Source: a virus
IMG/VR virus record: IMGVR_UViG_3300033074_002003
Direction: 5' to 3' (one strand)
DNA: 20,273 nt
Part shown: piece after piece, positions 4,395-20,273 of the stretch
How the letters are laid out: the number at the start of each line of letters is the position of its first letter
Position numbering within the stretch: the first letter of the stretch is position 1
Translations under genes and position numbers: made by a program
The notes under the pieces: generated by a model
Database searches by the model: none
Told to the model about the DNA's origin: nothing
What the model saw: the letters and a program-made list of their open reading frames with translations, nothing else

Positions 4395-5048
4395 ATGGAC
4401 AACACGAAACGCTACATCTACTTCATTGTCAATCGCATAAACTCTAAACGATACGTTGGACAAACACGTGATTATGTAAAAAGATCTAAGCAACATTTTT
4501 CTGAGGGCAAGAAGGGTAGAAAACGACATCCACTCTACGATTCCATGTTTTCACACGGGATCGAAAATTTCGAATTTGTTGTGATACAAGAGTGTTGCGA
4601 AAATGACGTTGATGAGTGTGAGATAGCGTGGATTAAAGCATTGTGCACTCGTGATAGAAGATTTGGATACAATCTTACGCCGGGTGGTAGTGCAATGTCG
4701 AGTTGTGTCTATGAGAAAATTTCAAAATCAATGTCTGGTAGACATTTCACACCCGAACACAAGGCAAAAATAGCTCAAGCGTTGAGAGGACAAAAGAGAC
4801 CTCCTTTGAAAGTTGAGCACGTTGAAAAGATAAGAAAATTCAACTTAGAGTCGCCGCCCTTTGCGGGTAAAACTCATACTGTTGAAACGCGTGAGAAAAT
4901 ACGTTGCGCAAATTCCAAATTGACGCGTGAAATCGTGAAAGTGATTCGCGAAGAATTCAATAATGGAACATCTCGTAAAGAGCTTGCACAAAAATATCAG
5001 GTTTCGTATAGTGCAATCAAGAATATCGTTGCAGGTAGACGCTGGTGA
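4395..5048 (+). CDS. GIY-YIG homing endonuclease (I-TevI-like, with NUMOD-type repeats)
   Basis: N-terminal RYIYFIVNRINSKRYVGQT with the GIY-YIG signature, Arg (CTRDRRFGYN) and Glu. C-terminal repeated SGRHFTPEHKAKIAQA and GKTHTVETREKIR NUMOD3-like motifs and an HTH-like tail. AT-rich island directly after the tRNA array. Confidence 0.75.
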   Translation: MDNTKRYIYFIVNRINSKRYVGQTRDYVKRSKQHFSEGKKGRKRHPLYDSMFSHGIENFEFVVIQECCENDVDECEIAWIKALCTRDRRFGYNLTPGGSAMSSCVYEKISKSMSGRHFTPEHKAKIAQALRGQKRPPLKVEHVEKIRKFNLESPPFAGKTHTVETREKIRCANSKLTREIVKVIREEFNNGTSRKELAQKYQVSYSAIKNIVAGRRW

Positions 5049-7002: not shown

Positions 7003-7042
7003 CTGCTGTGAACAACACAGTGACCCAGAGTAAAATTCTAGG

Positions 7043-7393: not shown

Positions 7394-8272
7394 ATGCTTA
7401 GAACGTGTGATTATTGTGACTTGACTGATGACTTTAATAGCGTTCAATCTTGGGCAGCACACCGTTCGAATTGTATAAAAAATCCCAATCGAACAGCGAA
7501 GCTGGCGAGAATGAGTGAATCGGCAGCCAAAGTTTCACGTAAAATCCTTGCTTTGACGTGTAGTTGTGGTTCGCTATTTTCCATAGAAGTCACAGACGCT
7601 GAAATTACGCGTGGTGCACATAGACACTTCTGTTCGCGGCAATGTGCAAATCGTCGTCAGCATTCGTCTGAAACCAAACAGAAAATTTCGCAAAGTGTTT
7701 CCAGATTTTTTCCCGAATCTATTTCTGTCGAAGTTGAATGTGCCGAGTGCAAGCGTAAATTCGTTGGTAAAACAGGAAGAACGTGTTGTTCACAACAGTG
7801 CGCTCGCGTAATCAATAATCGAAAAAGAATGATTGCAGCACAGTTGCCAGAAACTAGAGCAAAGATCGCAGCGAAGACTTTAGAGGCTTATGCTAACGGT
7901 CGCGAACAGTGTGGTGGGCGAACGAAATGGTTTGATGTTTACACGCTTCGATACGGCAAAATTCGTGTGCAAGGGACGTATGAAGTTCGAGCGTGTCAAA
8001 TTCTTGACAAGATGCTTGCTTCTGGAGAATTGATCGCGTGGGAATATACACGAGCTAGATTTCCTTATGTAGACACGTCTGGCAAACAACGTATGTACAG
8101 ACCGGATTTCAAGCTTGTTTATCCTACACACGAAGAATTTGTTGAAACGAAGGGATTTTCAACACCAAATGACGAACGCAAATGGGAAGCTCTTCGTTTG
8201 TTGGGTCATCATTTGTCAGTGTGGCGTGAAGCTGATCTCAAACAACGTGAATCTAAAGAGCATATGTCCTGA
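7394..8272 (+). CDS. putative free-standing nuclease with a PD-(D/E)xK / Vsr-like (DUF559-like) C-terminal domain and two N-terminal Cys-rich C..CAR modules
   Basis: The C-terminal YEVRACQILD..WEYTRARFPY..YRPDFKLVYPTHEEFVETKG matches the PD..(D/E)xK arrangement. HFCSRQCANRRQ and TCCSQQCARVINNRK resemble the GRFCSKKCARAFS module of the two HNH genes. AT-rich island between tRNA-His and downstream genes. Confidence 0.5.
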   Translation: MLRTCDYCDLTDDFNSVQSWAAHRSNCIKNPNRTAKLARMSESAAKVSRKILALTCSCGSLFSIEVTDAEITRGAHRHFCSRQCANRRQHSSETKQKISQSVSRFFPESISVEVECAECKRKFVGKTGRTCCSQQCARVINNRKRMIAAQLPETRAKIAAKTLEAYANGREQCGGRTKWFDVYTLRYGKIRVQGTYEVRACQILDKMLASGELIAWEYTRARFPYVDTSGKQRMYRPDFKLVYPTHEEFVETKGFSTPNDERKWEALRLLGHHLSVWREADLKQRESKEHMS

Positions 8273-8284
8273 GAGGACACGACA

Positions 8285-8524
8285 ATGAACTGTTCGGTGG
8301 CGCTACGCAACACAATGGCAAACATCGCGCTCGATGCGTTCCCGTTCGCCACGGGCGCGTGGACAGACGGCGATCGCGTGGTCGTGTACGTTAGCGACGA
8401 CCACGACCTCACCGACCAGAGGTCAGGCGACGCGACGTTCAGGTTTCCGGAGTTCGACGGCGAGTCAGTGAGAGAAATTTCGAGGCCCGTCACCATCGAA
8501 TTCGTGAGACACTCGTTCACGTAG
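8285..8524 (+). CDS. hypothetical protein (79 aa)
   Basis: GAGAGGACACGACA precedes the ATG. High GC3. Confidence 0.45.
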   Translation: MNCSVALRNTMANIALDAFPFATGAWTDGDRVVVYVSDDHDLTDQRSGDATFRFPEFDGESVREISRPVTIEFVRHSFT

Positions 8525-8584
8525 CTTAATTGGTAAAGCACCGCATTTTGGCGGAGGCTGTGAGTTCGAATCTCATCGTGAACA
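8515..8584 (+). pseudogene. degenerate tRNA-like gene (70 nt) with a 4-bp anticodon stem and a 6-nt loop
   Basis: Acceptor GTTCACG/CGTGAAC is perfect. D-stem GCTT/AAGC. T-arm GTGAG-TTCGAAT-CTCAT. The anticodon arm is CCGC-ATTTTG-GCGG, which is 3 nt too short. Overlaps the stop of the 8285..8524 CDS. Confidence 0.35.
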
Positions 8585-8586
8585 CA

Positions 8587-8889
8587 ATGTGGGCAACATC
8601 ATACATAGAAGCGCTGCGCGCGGGTGAGACGGTGTCTTTTAGGCCCCGTGGGAACTCGATGCGTCCAAAGATCGAGTCCGGACAGCTTGTCACTGTCTCG
8701 CCCGTCGGCGAGCGCGAGCTGCAAACGGGAGACATCGTCTTGTGCAAGGTTTCTGGTCACCAGTACCTGCACATCATCACCGCCATCGATCAGGACGGCA
8801 GGTGCCAGATCAGCAACAACAGGGGTCACATCAACGGGTGGGCACAGCGACAGAATGTGTTCGGCGTTGTCGTGAAGGTAGAGGACTGA
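8587..8889 (+). CDS. S24-family (LexA/UmuD/signal-peptidase-like) peptidase domain protein
   Basis: GNSMRPKIESGQLVTVSP...GDIVLCKVSG resembles the S24 Ser-Lys dyad motifs (GxSMxP ... GDxVxxK). Start moved to ATG 8587, after the tRNA-like element. The track ORF starts at 8530. Confidence 0.45.
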   Translation: MWATSYIEALRAGETVSFRPRGNSMRPKIESGQLVTVSPVGERELQTGDIVLCKVSGHQYLHIITAIDQDGRCQISNNRGHINGWAQRQNVFGVVVKVED

Positions 8890-9019: not shown

Positions 9020-9622
9020 ATGAAATGTGAACGCTGTCAAGTTGAACACAGTGGGACGTATGGTTCGGGAAGATTTTGCACAGTCAAGTGTGCGAGATCT
9101 TTTTCAACAGCGTCTACTTCTGAAAAACGTTCAGAGATCAACAAACGAGTATCAGCGACACTAACGCAACCGCCAAAAGTAGCGACCTGTTGCATGTGTA
9201 ACACGCGGTATGAAACGCGACATCAGCGTTCTACATGTTGTAGTAAAGAGTGTCGAAAAGCTCGTAAAGCTCAAGTACAACACAACGTAACTAGAGAACA
9301 AAGAATCGAATTGGGCATCAAGAGTTCCTTTGGCAAATATGTTCGAAATCCGACAAGTTTGTATGATTTGAGCAACCGAACAATCAGTAAGATTCTTACA
9401 AGACTCGGAATCGGGTGTTCTTTGTGTGGTTGGTCTGCTGGAAAGTGTGACATTCATCACATTCGTGGTCGGAAAATTGAAGAAGCAGACAGACACGAAA
9501 ATTTGGCCTACGTGTGTCCAAATTGTCACAGGCTGATTCACAACAAGAAAATCAAGATTGACAGTCTTGTATCACTTCAAGATCAGATTGGTGATCGCTG
9601 GAAAGAGCTCTATTACGGTTAA
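9020..9622 (+). CDS. HNH homing endonuclease, a paralog of 361..1080
   Basis: N-terminal MKCERCQVEHSGTYGSGRFCTVKCARSFS. HNH motif CDIHHIRGRKIEEADRHENLAYVCPNCHRLIHN. AT-rich. Confidence 0.75.
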   Translation: MKCERCQVEHSGTYGSGRFCTVKCARSFSTASTSEKRSEINKRVSATLTQPPKVATCCMCNTRYETRHQRSTCCSKECRKARKAQVQHNVTREQRIELGIKSSFGKYVRNPTSLYDLSNRTISKILTRLGIGCSLCGWSAGKCDIHHIRGRKIEEADRHENLAYVCPNCHRLIHNKKIKIDSLVSLQDQIGDRWKELYYG

Positions 9623-10020: not shown

Positions 10021-10506
10021 ATGTCGTCGCTTCGCACCTTCGTGCAGATTCTCGTCGAGAGGGTGGGTGCTCCGCTACCAGACGAGGCGATTAGTGCGAT
10101 CGTGGGGGAGTACGCAGAGTCGCCGAAGCACCCTGAGATGCGACTCACGTGGAAGTGGGGCTCTGTTCACAGCGGCAGGCGCGTTCCCGGGTGGGGAGCG
10201 TACGTTCCCGACGATTTCGCGATTGTGATGAAGAGGTCGAGGGGAGCGAGCCCAGAAGATTTTGTCCTGACGCTCCTGCACGAGCTCGAACACTACAACC
10301 AGCACGTGAGAATGGCAGATGAGCTCCCGCAGGGCGCGACGAGGCAGGAGATCGTCGACGCATGGACAGAGTCGTACGGCGGGGCACTGAACACCTCGTC
10401 CTACGATGATAATATGTACGAGGTCTCAGCAGAGGCATTTGCACAGTCAGAGTTGGAGAACGCTCTGCAGATCGCTGGGATCACCCCGTCGTGGCCGAAT
10501 GGATAG
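10021..10506 (+). CDS. putative zinc metallopeptidase (HExxH)
   Basis: LTLLHELEHYNQH HExxH motif. Start set at ATG 10021, after AAGAGAGCA. Confidence 0.4.
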   Translation: MSSLRTFVQILVERVGAPLPDEAISAIVGEYAESPKHPEMRLTWKWGSVHSGRRVPGWGAYVPDDFAIVMKRSRGASPEDFVLTLLHELEHYNQHVRMADELPQGATRQEIVDAWTESYGGALNTSSYDDNMYEVSAEAFAQSELENALQIAGITPSWPNG

Positions 10507-10510
10507 GCAC

Positions 10511-10559
10511 CTCCCTCCGAAGGAGACTCACGCAGGTTCGAATCCTGCCGAAGGGGCCA
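10511..10559 (+). pseudogene. tRNA 3' fragment: short hairpin CTCC-GAA-GGAG, T-arm GCAGG-TTCGAAT-CCTGC, acceptor strand, discriminator and encoded CCA
   Basis: The T-arm is identical to that of tRNA-Asn at 4268-4284. No acceptor 5' partner lies within 90 nt upstream. Confidence 0.4.
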
Positions 10560-10661: not shown

Positions 10662-11195
10662 TCACTTGTCGGTGCGTGGGATGGGAGGTTTTGCCGCGAC
10701 GGACGAGACTCTCTTTGTCTGTGTGCTGTCGTTCTTCGTGAGCGCCTTGTGAATCGCCGTCGGGCGAGGTGGCGGAGCGGTATCGCCCGTGTGGACCTCG
10801 CGGAGGCTCGGTATCGAGATCTTCTTTACGTTTGACTCGAGTGCAGCCTCGATTTCAGAGATTCGCCTCTGCACCTCGACGTACTTCGCGAGGAGCGCGT
10901 CGTAGTCCTCGCGCTGCGACGCGATCGTCGACATGAATGTCGTGTAGCCCGCCTGCGCATCTTTGATGTCGTTCAGCATGAAAGCGGCGTCCCGGCGCAG
11001 CTCGTTCAACTGAGCCTCCAGTGCCTGGTTTTCTTTCGTGGCCGTAAATCCGGTGACGATCTCTTCCTTTACGCGCCACAGCAGGTAGATCACGATCAGT
11101 CCGATAGCGAGCGCTCCCACCTTGATGCAGAGGTCTAGGAGGACTGGGTCGACGAAACGACCGAAATCGAACTGCGAGGCCGAGGACAAAAACAT
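10662..11195 (-). CDS. membrane-anchored coiled-coil protein (N-terminal transmembrane helix, type-II topology), the only minus-strand gene
   Basis: Hydrophobic LLDLCIKVGALAIGLIVIYLLW. Heptad-like ALEAQLNELRRDAAFMLNDIKDAQAGY. Pro-rich tail. Start set at the internal Met (ATG at 11195-11193 on the minus strand) because the listed start, 11285, would overlap tRNA-Ser(GCT) on the + strand. Confidence 0.45.
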   Translation of the reverse strand: MFLSSASQFDFGRFVDPVLLDLCIKVGALAIGLIVIYLLWRVKEEIVTGFTATKENQALEAQLNELRRDAAFMLNDIKDAQAGYTTFMSTIASQREDYDALLAKYVEVQRRISEIEAALESNVKKISIPSLREVHTGDTAPPPRPTAIHKALTKNDSTQTKRVSSVAAKPPIPRTDK

Positions 11196-11221
11196 GACAA
11201 AGTGTAAGTATTGAACGACAC

Positions 11222-11309
11222 GAGAACGAATGGAAGCATACTCAAGAGGCTGACGAGATCCGACTGCTAATCGGATGTGTCCCATAAAGGCACCGCGGGT
11301 TCGAATCCC
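11222..11309 (+). tRNA. tRNA-Ser(GCT), type II, 88 nt
   Basis: Acceptor GGAAGCA/TGCTTCC is perfect. Anticodon stem TCCGA/TCGGA with loop CTGCTAA. Variable arm GTGTC-CCATAAA-GGCAC. T-arm GCGGG-TTCGAAT-CCCGC. Confidence 0.65.
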
Positions 11310-11364
11310 GCTGCTTCCGCAAATCTGAACACCACCCAGTAGAGCGGTATGATAGGACGGACAG

Positions 11365-11454
11365 TCACACTGTTGGAGGCGTGGTGGAGTGGTCGATCAC
11401 GTCCGTCTTGAAAACGGAAGATCGGTGATGAGCCGGTCCGGGGGTTCGAATCCC
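11365..11454 (+). tRNA. tRNA-Ser(TGA), type II, 90 nt
   Basis: Acceptor GGAGGCG/CGCCTCC is perfect. 3-bp D-stem with a long loop. Anticodon stem TCCGT/ACGGA with loop CTTGAAA. Variable arm CGGT-GATGA-GCCG. T-arm GGGGG-TTCGAAT-CCCTC. Confidence 0.7.
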
Positions 11455-11596
11455 TCCGCCTCCGCAAATTCTGTACAAACCGCTCTCAGTGAGCCATAAT
11501 GAGCATGACCTGAAAATTGTCGCCGAGAACCGAAGTTTTCGGTGTCACCCATCACACCGTGTGTTACAACAGTCACTCTTGGAGGAGTGATACGCA

Positions 11597-18419: not shown

Positions 18420-18737
18420 ATGGCGAAGAAGATCGGTGTCGAGGCGCTCGCGCGCATTCTGTTCAGTACTGTCGAAGCGTGCTACGAGAAATGCGATCAC
18501 ACGTATCGCGTTGACATGCCACTCGAACTCGTTGGTCGCCTGCGCGGGAACGTCGAAATCCCAGATCGCGAAAAAGAATCAGAGTTCTACCACCTGGGAG
18601 ATCCACGCTTGAGGAACATGTATCGCGACGTCGCGCGATCGATCATCAGCGGGATCTCGTACAACGAGATCGTAGACGCGCGAGCCAGGGCTAAAGCGAA
18701 GTCAGCGAAGAGGAAGAAGAGCAAGAAGAAGGGCTAG
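18420..18737 (+). CDS. hypothetical protein with a Lys-rich C-terminal tail (105 aa)
   Basis: Start moved to ATG 18420, after GAGGGGATCTGAG. The upstream in-frame extension would overlap the previous gene. Confidence 0.45.
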   Translation: MAKKIGVEALARILFSTVEACYEKCDHTYRVDMPLELVGRLRGNVEIPDREKESEFYHLGDPRLRNMYRDVARSIISGISYNEIVDARARAKAKSAKRKKSKKKG

Positions 18738-18742
18738 GCACA

Positions 18743-19120
18743 ATGGAGCATCTCCCGCTCGTGCTCGTATGGAACCACGCCGAGAAGAACCCAGAGACGT
18801 CTGCGTCGCCCGCGAAGATCGTCGGTGAGTTCGCGAGCCACATGGCGCTCGCTGTGCACGTCGAGCTCATGGACAGAGAGGTGTGGTCCGGCCGCTCGCT
18901 CTACGTCGTGCTGGGACCCAGCACGCACCCGCGTCCCAGTGATTCGATTTGCAATATCGGTCGCTCGCGTCCCTCTTCGGGCGACTGGTGGGCCTCGCGC
19001 CCAGGATCACACGGGTGGTGCAGGTCGCTGCTCTACCAGTGGGCAAACCTTGGTGGCGACTGGGAACAAGAGTCTAAGCAGTTTGCCGCCGAAGAGCTGG
19101 AGAGGCGAGGTTGGCGATGA
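18743..19120 (+). CDS. hypothetical protein (125 aa)
   Basis: Open frame with high GC3. Directly follows the previous stop. Confidence 0.45.
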   Translation: MEHLPLVLVWNHAEKNPETSASPAKIVGEFASHMALAVHVELMDREVWSGRSLYVVLGPSTHPRPSDSICNIGRSRPSSGDWWASRPGSHGWCRSLLYQWANLGGDWEQESKQFAAEELERRGWR

Positions 19121-19428
19121 GCGAGAAGTTCGTGATCAAGTACAGTGACGGGCTCTACGAGCACGAATCGGGATTTCCGGTCACACTCGAGGGCGCGACA
19201 CGGTACGAAACAGCCGAAGCAGCGTGCGCGCAAGCCGCGAATCTCTGTTGGGACCCAGTCGTCATTCCTGAGCCGCCACCGACTGCAAACTTGTCTGATA
19301 TGCGAAGGGCTCTCGCTGCGATCGCCAGAGACATCGCAGAAGAGCCGACGGTCACGACCGGTGAGGTGGACGCTGCGTATGCCCTCGCTCGCGAGTGTGC
19401 GAGAGAAGAAGGGTTTGAGATTCCGTGA
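19117..19428 (+). CDS. hypothetical protein (103 aa)
   Basis: ATGA overlap (ATG 19117) with the upstream stop. The track ORF starts at TTG 19111. Confidence 0.45.
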   Translation: MSEKFVIKYSDGLYEHESGFPVTLEGATRYETAEAACAQAANLCWDPVVIPEPPPTANLSDMRRALAAIARDIAEEPTVTTGEVDAAYALARECAREEGFEIP

Positions 19429-19459
19429 ACTCTGTCATCCTGTGTGATAGAGTGACGGC

Positions 19460-19660
19460 ATGTCTTCAACGCACCTCGATGACGGTCTGTTCTGCTACCC
19501 ACCGACGATCGTGAAGAACAAGACGCGATGCAAGCACGGTGAGGGCACGTGCGCCCTGTGTGGAACTTGTGATGCCACAGACGAAGTCCACACCACAACA
19601 GACGGTGTGGGACCCGTTGCTGCGCTCACGACTCACAAGAAGCGCAAGCGTCGGAAGTAA
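19460..19660 (+). CDS. small Cys-rich protein with a basic tail (66 aa)
   Basis: CKHGEGTCALCGTC cluster. KKRKRRK C-terminus. Confidence 0.4.
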   Translation: MSSTHLDDGLFCYPPTIVKNKTRCKHGEGTCALCGTCDATDEVHTTTDGVGPVAALTTHKKRKRRK

Positions 19661-19669
19661 GGAGCAACA

Positions 19670-20273
19670 GTGTCTCTAGGCGTCGTCTGTCACTGGCTCG
19701 TCGAGCGATCCCGCCCGCGGTCTGCCCCCATCATGGTCAACGCGCTCGACGAGAAGAAGCTGATGCTCGGCGTCTACCGTGCGGGCGGTTACACTCGGCA
19801 GCGAATTGTCGACACATACGTCCACAACGCCGAGTCGCTCCTTGCGCTCCTGCGAGACCACGTTGTCCCGGCGGGCGTCCGGTGCTACAGAATCTCGTCG
19901 TCGCTCTTCCCACTCAGTGACCTCGTGGGCGACGCCATCTTTGACAAGCACCCGCGCGTTTGCAGCGCCCTCCAGAAAATCGGTCACCTCGCGCGCGAGC
20001 ACGGCCTGCGACTCACGATGCACCCGGGACAGTTCTGTGTCCTGTCATCCTCGCGCGAAGATGTCGTCCGGAATGCCGTCGCAGAGATCGAGCGTCACTC
20101 GTGGGTCTTCGATGCGATGGGCATGCCCGAGTCTCCGTACGCGGCCATCAACGTCCACGGCGGCGCACGAGACAGCGCGGACGCGCTCTGTCGCGGCATC
20201 GAGTTGCTGTCCAGTGCAGCGCGGTCACGCCTCACACTCGAAAATTGCGAGAGCGCGTACGGGATCGACGAGC
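19670..20273 (+). CDS. uvdE: UV-damage endonuclease (UvdE)-like TIM-barrel protein, 3'-truncated by the window end; not in the supplied ORF track
   Basis: Hand translation of the open frame from GTG 19670, with AAGGAG 5 nt upstream, or from ATG 19733. It gives ...YRISSSLFPL...RLTMHPGQFCVLSSSREDV...INVHGGA...LTLENCE. These match the UvdE blocks RFSSRLIPL, LSLHPDHFVVLNSP, HTGGA and FENDD. No stop before the window end. Confidence 0.5.
   Translation, partial: MSLGVVCHWLVERSRPRSAPIMVNALDEKKLMLGVYRAGGYTRQRIVDTYVHNAESLLALLRDHVVPAGVRCYRISSSLFPLSDLVGDAIFDKHPRVCSALQKIGHLAREHGLRLTMHPGQFCVLSSSREDVVRNAVAEIERHSWVFDAMGMPESPYAAINVHGGARDSADALCRGIELLSSAARSRLTLENCESAYGIDE

Follow-up and report, generated by a model that had tools for sequence, protein, structure and literature searches.

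A conserved reversed gene for a predicted single-pass membrane coiled-coil protein in the tRNA island of an uncultured phage

Results

A lone reversed gene among tRNA genes

The DNA considered here is a stretch of 20,273 nucleotides (nt) from virus record IMGVR_UViG_3300033074_002003, referred to throughout as the window. It carries 26 transfer RNA (tRNA) genes, all of them on the + strand (ARAGORN), and among these stands a single protein-coding gene on the minus strand, here called TMCC (Table 1). A preliminary description of the window, made from the letters without database searches, had singled out this gene as the only one on the minus strand. The claim is confirmed by contigs that match the window exactly or almost so (L002-L005), on which every other gene is called on the opposite strand. 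The gene does converge, as that description had stated, on a tRNA of atypical form, its stop codon (10662-10664) lying 3-4 nt from the 3' end of that tRNA. The atypical tRNA is treated here as a neighbor of TMCC, with no claim of a functional tie.

The open reading frame (ORF) extends from stop to stop over 10662..11285 (minus strand; 207 amino acids, aa), and the longer version would overlap tRNA-Ser(GCT), as previously pointed out; the overlap amounts to 54 nt. The extension is an artefact. An internal ATG at 11195 gives a product of 177 aa, and this reading was chosen because no in-frame ATG, GTG or TTG is present in 11196-11231, because the extension upstream of the ATG varies by haplotype (versions of 207, 212 and 245 aa), and because the distant homologues described below all begin 4-12 residues ahead of a conserved N-terminal motif, DxGxFxDP. 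ATG 11195 is the true start.

Table 1. Position and strand of TMCC, the predicted segments of its product, and other features of the window.
Feature	Position	Strand	Basis and remarks
TMCC protein-coding gene	10662..11195	-	177 aa plus TGA stop; single-pass membrane, coiled coil, Pro-rich tail (predicted)
Residues 1-18, short acidic N-tail with the most conserved family motif	11142..11195	-	Alignments A2, A3
Transmembrane helix, residues ~19-40, LLDLCIKVGALAIGLIVIYLLW	11076..11141	-	Kyte-Doolittle, AlphaFold2
Two amphipathic helices with heptad character and a 4-residue break, residues 58-125	10821..11024	-	AlphaFold2, heptad occupancy
Disordered basic Pro-rich tail, residues 126-177	10665..10820	-	pLDDT, composition, alignments
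Divergent spacer, 36 nt, AT-rich, no Shine-Dalgarno	11196..11231	.	Between TMCC ATG and tRNA-Ser(GCT)
tRNA-Ser(GCT)	11232-11320	+	ARAGORN; Rfam 54.2 bits; head-to-head with TMCC
tRNA-Ser(TGA)	11375-11465	+	ARAGORN, Rfam tRNA match
tRNA-Arg(CCG)	10485-10559	+	ARAGORN, Rfam tRNA match
Atypical tRNA-like gene	10571-10657/8	+	ARAGORN; Rfam tRNA 38.1 bits; converges with TMCC
GIY-YIG gene	4395-5048	+	Low GC (0.40-0.44), no Shine-Dalgarno
292-aa gene, no assigned family	7394-8272	+	Low GC (0.40-0.44), no Shine-Dalgarno
HNH endonuclease gene	9020-9622	+	Low GC (0.40-0.44), no Shine-Dalgarno

TMCC is maintained by purifying selection

In this 58% GC sequence the length of an ORF is not evidence for a gene: of the 64 ORFs that reach 90 aa or more, the minus strand accounts for 25, among them ORFs of 513 and 418 aa that are antisense to real genes. 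The frequency of such long antisense ORFs speaks for an alternative in which TMCC is no gene at all but a chance antisense ORF within the GC-rich spacer of a tRNA precursor made from the + strand. So does the lack of a Shine-Dalgarno (SD) sequence and of any recognizable promoter at TMCC, and so does the lack of a good promoter belonging to tRNA-Ser(GCT) itself, which suggests that + strand transcription reads through the region. The pattern of substitution is against it. The haplotype represented by L006 and L010 differs from the window by 13-14 nt within the gene, all of these being synonymous changes at third positions, together with a change of the stop codon from TGA to TAA (for L006, 13 of 13 codon differences are synonymous). 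A more divergent haplotype (L012-L017) shows 48 nt differences, of which ~38 are synonymous; nine residues of the protein are altered, several within the C-terminal tail. The ratio of nonsynonymous to synonymous divergence (dN/dS, Nei-Gojobori) is 0 against L006 (0 of 13) and 0.069 against L012. Only one other frame gives a low ratio, the antisense frame with which TMCC has wobble positions in common, and that frame is closed on the + strand (longest ORF 55 aa); the + strand thus offers no open frame to which the pattern might be credited.

The exact protein is found on at least 23 metagenomic contigs, and its cluster at 90% identity has nine members, the longest contig listed for the cluster being of 329 kilobases (kb). 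Homologues with 28-44% identity retain the length, the motifs and the membrane helix. This comparative evidence is decisive: because substitutions fall at third positions of the TMCC frame and homologues exist at 28-44% identity, TMCC is almost certainly a real gene under purifying selection, and its origin as a chance ORF is, on the same comparisons, effectively refuted.

A small family

An exhaustive HMMER search of 1.84 billion representative proteins returned only three further clusters (P0010, P0011 and P0012, with 44%, 38% and 33% identity, respectively), and a profile search of 5.8 billion clusters added one more (P0013), giving five clusters at 90% identity in total. The homologues are 181-186 aa long, so that all members fall between 177 and 186 aa, and the layout is the same in each; they are carried on contigs of 22.8, 131 and 209 kb and on one fragment of 2.4 kb. 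Among 50,697 records of cultured phages, megablast and tblastn detected no relative of the region or of the protein, nor any of the 44% homologue or of the neighboring 228-aa protein. The IMG/VR and Joint Genome Institute (JGI) metagenome collections that were scanned with the protein and the family alignment carried no relative either.

Profile searches of Pfam, PHROGs, PADLOC and PDB gave nothing beyond coiled-coil noise, in the form of generic matches to vimentin, Beclin, GCN4 and CENPH and a sub-threshold match to DivIC. A Foldseek comparison of the low-confidence structural model with BFVD yielded no match at E <=0.001. The exact sequence bears the IMG name 'septal ring factor EnvC'; no other result corroborates EnvC, and for that reason the label is taken as probably also coiled-coil noise. 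TMCC is therefore a member of a new, tiny and unannotated family, although one of a familiar kind, the phage single-pass membrane coiled-coil proteins.

Relatives of the L012 type (L012, at 8110-8643 on the + strand of the locus, and also L015-L017) contain a second reverse-strand gene that likewise encodes 177 aa and adjoins an AAA_18-like gene missing from the window. It was considered as a paralogue and rejected: the sequence is unrelated, there is no transmembrane helix, and the equal size is coincidental.

Predicted organization of the protein

Hydropathy, structure prediction and the composition of the tail bear out the earlier suggestion that the product has an N-terminal transmembrane (TM) helix, coiled-coil-like helices and a Pro-rich tail. 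The Kyte-Doolittle maximum over 19 residues is 2.50 (residues 18-36), with values of 1.95-2.92 in the homologues. AlphaFold2, supplied with the five-sequence alignment, predicts helices at 17-52, 58-93 and 98-125 and disorder over residues 127-177. The block-mean predicted local distance difference test score (pLDDT) is 57-82 for helix 17-52 (~80 over residues 21-40) and below 50 for residues 127-170 and 172-177. For the model as a whole confidence is low (mean pLDDT 61.7, predicted template modelling score 0.23), and therefore only its secondary structure was used. Hydrophobic residues occupy the heptad a and d positions modestly more often than in shuffled sequences (1-59 of 500 shuffles match or exceed the observed value, depending on the homologue); residues 58-125 form a predicted coiled-coil or helical-hairpin region.

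There are four groups of invariant positions. The N-tail and the start of the TM helix share the motif D-x-G-x-F-[IV]-D-P-x-L-L-D-L-x-x-K, in which D10, G12, F14, D16, P17, L19, L20, D21, L22 and K25 are invariant (alignments A2 and A3). Invariant positions in the helices are scattered (Q62, E65, R68, A71, L101, K104, Y105). The tail contains 8 Pro, 9 Lys or Arg (K/R) and 4 Asp or Glu (D/E) among its 52 residues, and Pro makes up 16-22% of the tails of the homologues. Two islands within it are conserved, K-I-S-x-P and E-V-H-T-G-D-T, as is the sequence K-x-P-I-P-R-[ET]-[DE] at its C-terminus; the invariant residues are I126-S127 and I172, P173 and R174, the last followed by [ET]-[DE]. The only Cys of the window protein is C23, within the TM helix, and the family has no invariant Cys. 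Taken together, an order of acidic N-tail, one TM helix, short linker, two coiled-coil-like helices and disordered Pro-rich tail is well supported as the probable architecture.

TMCC occupies an ancestral position

The preliminary description had regarded TMCC as a typical moron-like insertion. On this reading the gene is moron or abortive-infection cargo newly inserted into the tRNA island, and two observations are in keeping with it: the orientation opposite to that of the neighbors, and the fact that the island accepts low-GC mobile genes of the HNH and GIY-YIG types, variably present between haplotypes. Composition and synteny do not support it. The GC content of TMCC is 0.584 and that of its third codon positions (GC3) 0.764, both native values: GC3 of native genes is 0.66-0.84, and the evident mobile inserts of the island have a GC content of 0.40-0.44. 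Furthermore, neither the position nor the orientation of the gene changes in any relative found, down to 28% identity; these are the 20 related loci with the region (L001-L020) together with L026. In L018, L019, L020 and L026 the homologue is opposite to all of its immediate neighbors and to nearly every called gene.

TMCC marks the left edge of a block consisting of tRNA-Ser, genes for proteins of 228 and 106 aa, a sigma factor, proteins of 58, 92 and 179 aa, and a DNA ligase. When the window proteins were compared with the distant loci by tblastn, the proteins of this block showed 34-62% identity and TMCC 28-40%; the neighbors have diverged in parallel, at 45-60%. The distance between the start codon and the divergent tRNA-Ser(GCT) is 36 nt in the window and 19, 18 and 23 nt in L018, L019 and L020, while in L026 a gene of 126 aa intervenes between the homologue and tRNA-Ser. 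The 3' side varies: the atypical tRNA is found there in the window clade only, and in L018, L019 and L020 a convergent protein gene takes its place, abutting the stop codon or overlapping it.

No sigma-70-type promoter or intrinsic terminator flanks the gene, and its matches in PADLOC are of the coiled-coil type only (E >=0.001). Lambdoid morons (lambda bor and HK97 gp15, for instance) resemble TMCC in being single membrane-protein genes oriented against their neighbors; unlike them, TMCC has native composition, an ancestral and fixed position, and no promoter/terminator pair. Because its composition is native and its position and orientation are fixed across relatives, TMCC is very probably ancestral to the clade, and a recent insertion as a moron is highly improbable, a reading that is close to refuted. 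The gene is inherited vertically within a small clade of uncultured phages that are large and rich in tRNA genes.

Expression signals

Genes on the + strand mostly have a strong SD sequence of the GGAG type. No SD-like tetramer precedes TMCC in any of the five lineages, and in all five the last 20 nt before the start are 65-70% A+T, in a genome of ~59% GC. A TANNNT element, TACACT, is found at -11..-6 on the minus strand of the window, and GATATT at -13..-8 in L018 and L019 (in L019 counting from the second ATG); the placement of TANNNT is inconsistent across lineages. A scan confined to consensus sigma-70 promoters and intrinsic terminators found neither a promoter for the gene on the minus strand nor a terminator after its stop codon. 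One terminator-like match inside the ORF (10942-10958, +) was discarded as being at chance level (1 found, 0.9 expected). The upstream 21-mer is unique in the window and is therefore not a repeated phage promoter motif. As to the spacer, its sequence is identical in the window and in L012 and L015 (the 9%-diverged haplotype) and has 2 changes in L006.

These sequences suggest that initiation is SD-independent, either leaderless or with a short A/U-rich leader; since no promoter was found and the TANNNT elements are inconsistently placed, leaderless initiation is put forward as a possibility. A promoter situated beyond the 36-nt spacer would have to be inside the tRNA-Ser(GCT) gene. No good + strand promoter was found ahead of tRNA-Ser(GCT) in any lineage, and + strand read-through across TMCC is possible; antisense interference is therefore possible as well. 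The conserved arrangement – reversed, SD-less and head-to-head with tRNA-Ser(GCT) – is a mildly unusual regulatory feature.

Two observations concern the surroundings of the spacer. tRNA-Ser(GCT) is heavily diverged between the window and L012 (4578-4670), with the spacer and the atypical tRNA unchanged and the flanking protein genes 91-100% identical. In addition, a promoter-like motif, TGAACA (or TGTACA)-N16/17-TAnnAT, recurs on the + strand at 1705-1733, 7009-7036, 11326-11353 and 11472-11500, and sigma-70-like sites in general are enriched (16 found, 6.4 expected); they are mostly on the + strand and several adjoin tRNA genes.

Other features of the tRNA island

The atypical tRNA has an insertion of ~22 nt in its D-loop, forming a hairpin of its own, and 8 nt in its 'anticodon' loop, UUAGUAAG; haplotypes of the window clade show no variation in it. 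A homologue is present in L018 (11013-11100, minus strand), which belongs to the clade with the 44%-identical membrane protein; its loop is different (CUGGAAGG), and compensatory changes separate the two in the extra hairpin and in the anticodon stem. Judged by these features, ordinary decoding may not be the function of the atypical tRNA. Two further 'tRNA-???' genes with an anticodon of 2 bases (tt) were predicted by ARAGORN at 90-164 and 8515-8585 (+).

The three low-GC genes in Table 1 look like mobile inserts of the homing-endonuclease type, and the HNH gene is missing from the otherwise near-identical contigs L002, L006, L010 and L011. Just upstream of tRNA-Arg, a gene at 10021-10506 (+) encodes a 161-aa protein with a HELEH (HExxH) motif and a weak match, below cut-off, to the putative metallopeptidase family DUF6782 (E = 0.0017); the L018 locus has a homologue at another place. 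In L019, the 209-kb relative, the tRNA island contains a TnpB/IS605-family gene (18560-19738, minus strand; OrfB_IS605, Cas12f1-like TNB). In a scan of a genome collection this TnpB gave only matches of 27-33% identity, to assorted metagenome-assembled genomes, and therefore no clue to the host.

Discussion

Topology and a possible role as a membrane-tethered adaptor

The orientation of the protein in the membrane was judged from the charges flanking the TM helix. The N-terminal flank contains 0-1 K/R and 2 D/E in every lineage, and the 15 residues that follow the helix contain 2-5 K/R; the net charge difference, C-terminal minus N-terminal flank and counting the N-terminal amine, is 0 for the window protein and +2 to +5 in the four other lineages. 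This bias leans towards insertion with the N-terminus out and the C-terminus in (N-out/C-in). With such an insertion the coiled coil would face the cytoplasm, as would the basic Pro-rich tail.

The most economical role on this basis can be sketched as follows. The coiled coil would oligomerize the protein, and the conserved terminal peptide of the tail (I-P-R-[ET]-[DE]) would dock a cytoplasmic partner, of phage or host, which would thus be held at the membrane. The reversed orientation and an SD-independent start, in a divergent region common with tRNA-Ser(GCT), would keep expression separate from the + strand operons.

The model for this proposal is p16.7 of phage phi29, for which Meijer et al. 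(2001) reportedly described a TM segment, a coiled coil and a functional domain. The likeness is one of a small phage protein with an N-terminal membrane anchor and a coiled coil, the functional part of p16.7 being C-terminal and cytoplasmic; of a setting among early or DNA-metabolism genes; and of a proposed logic in which a partner is tethered to the membrane. In phi29, p16.7 organizes membrane-associated DNA replication (PMC11476376). The two proteins differ in that p16.7 has a folded domain for DNA binding and dimerization, in place of which TMCC has a disordered basic Pro-rich tail. No p16.7 chain is among the PDB profile matches, and the comparison is an analogy of architecture, not of homology.

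Several results weigh against the proposal. The charge-bias rule is the single source of the topology, and by that rule the window's own protein is neutral. Moreover, lambda Rz is an N-in/C-out protein, and its translation (L027) has by our own count more K/R after the TM domain than before it; because Rz shows the same bias with the opposite topology, the rule is weak for proteins of this class. With its disordered tail TMCC lacks a folded effector domain comparable with that of p16.7, and the PDB profile search, the library of which should include p16.7 chains, returned coiled-coil noise only. Add to this the low confidence of the AlphaFold2 model and, for a separate expression programme, the failure to find a promoter and the inconsistent placement of TANNNT. 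By analogy with p16.7, a role as a membrane-tethered cytoplasmic adaptor is thus a doubtful possibility, if still the preferred one. The statement as a whole – a conserved, real gene that acts through a membrane-adaptor mechanism under its own expression programme – is offered tentatively.

A lysis protein

If, on the other hand, the C-terminus is outside, TMCC could be an envelope lysis protein: an i-spanin-like protein, a single-chain spanin, or a large holin or antiholin with a single TM domain. The coiled coils and the Pro-rich tail would then be periplasmic and would attack the cell wall, or the outer membrane if the host has one, as infection ends; late expression would be conceivable for a reversed gene within an early region. 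An i-spanin has class II topology (N-in, C-out) and a periplasmic helical domain; lambda Rz consists of two coiled coils joined by a linker (CC1-linker-CC2), and its partner Rz1 has a Pro-rich region (PMC6139136). TMCC has the N-terminal TM domain (Kyte-Doolittle 2.50, kept in all homologues) and the helices, and the succession of TM domain, helix 1, short linker, helix 2 and Pro-rich region mirrors Rz plus the Pro-rich region of Rz1. Rz itself, at 153 aa compared with 177 aa, likewise begins with a TM domain followed by two coiled-coil segments with a short linker. Nor would the position of TMCC be without precedent, since the spanin genes of T4 are located away from its holin and endolysin genes (PMC6139136).

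The particulars are less favorable. An o-spanin partner was looked for as an ORF with a lipobox, in any frame within the gene or in the 400 nt downstream, and was found in 0 of 6 loci; a 51-aa ORF downstream in L006 and L010 has no lipoprotein signal. What follows the gene directly is an antisense tRNA or a convergent gene, not an o-spanin, and synonymous sites within TMCC vary without constraint, which is evidence against a second gene embedded in it. Comparison with lambda Rz by hhalign gave a probability of 0.2%, and PHROGs and Pfam produced coiled-coil noise only. Spanins in general are described as forming intermolecular disulfides (PMC6139136); TMCC has no conserved Cys outside the membrane. 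Flank charges favor N-out/C-in in four of the five lineages, the window protein being neutral, which hints at a topology opposite to that of the i-spanins. Neither endolysin nor holin is among the neighbors with Pfam matches within 20 kb.

The Pro-rich segment, moreover, lies in the same chain as the coiled coils in TMCC, without a lipid anchor, and belongs to Rz1 in lambda. TMCC was first compared with i-spanins for its architecture, and for want of a partner, lysis neighbors, similarity to Rz and extra-membrane Cys that comparison is not supported. A function in lysis of any of these kinds is improbable. Still more so is one particular form of it, a single-chain spanin or fusogen of a new kind, in which the modules of Rz and Rz1 (TM domain, two coiled-coil segments and Pro-rich region) would be fused in one polypeptide without a lipoprotein anchor and expressed from a reversed, SD-less start of late type within a tRNA island.

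Superinfection exclusion, host takeover and the divisome

The strongest rival to an adaptor is an inner-membrane protein for superinfection exclusion or early host takeover, which a promoter of its own would express shortly after infection. Such a protein would block the entry of DNA from later phages or disturb an envelope or division complex of the host, after the fashion of T4 Imm/Sp or SPO1 gp56. It would account for a membrane anchor in a protein that also conserves a short N-terminal motif and a C-terminal peptide, for an orientation and start signals distinct from those of the neighbors, and for a place near a sigma factor, a ligase and tRNAs, in what looks like an early or middle region. 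A DivIC-like match over the junction of the TM helix and coiled coil points the same way. It is, however, sub-threshold (15.9 bits against a cut-off of 28.9), and it was obtained with two near-identical sequences of the window clade and not with the distant homologues.

Membership of the FtsB/FtsL/DivIC family (PF04977) was accordingly rejected, the score being short of the gathering cut-off and limited to those 2 of the 5 members. These division proteins share with TMCC a bitopic form, a short N-tail, one TM helix and a coiled coil directly after the membrane; TMCC differs from them in its greater length, its Pro-rich tail and its opposite predicted topology. An hhalign comparison with Escherichia coli FtsL found nothing, and there is no sequence or profile similarity to known exclusion or division proteins. 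We know of no defining sequence signature for superinfection-exclusion membrane proteins. On balance a function in exclusion or takeover is unlikely, if less so than one in lysis. As for abortive infection, which had been named among the candidate functions, PADLOC-DB holds no credible match to a defence or abortive-infection system: the matches are weak, of the coiled-coil type and inconsistent among members (LmuB, E = 0.012; HerA, E = 0.0011, one member).

Implications

In this GC-rich genome, comparative substitution patterns constitute evidence for a gene, and the length and orientation of an ORF do not. Nor is a gene a moron simply because it is reversed within a tRNA island. The SD-less spacer of 18-36 nt that TMCC and tRNA-Ser(GCT) share head-to-head forms a compact control region and is a candidate for bidirectional or leaderless expression. 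What began as an oddity in raw sequence is now a defined, tiny family, five clusters at 90% identity among ~15 billion proteins; should a function be found for it, be it as membrane tether, exclusion factor or lysis factor, one conserved gene of this group of phages would be annotated.

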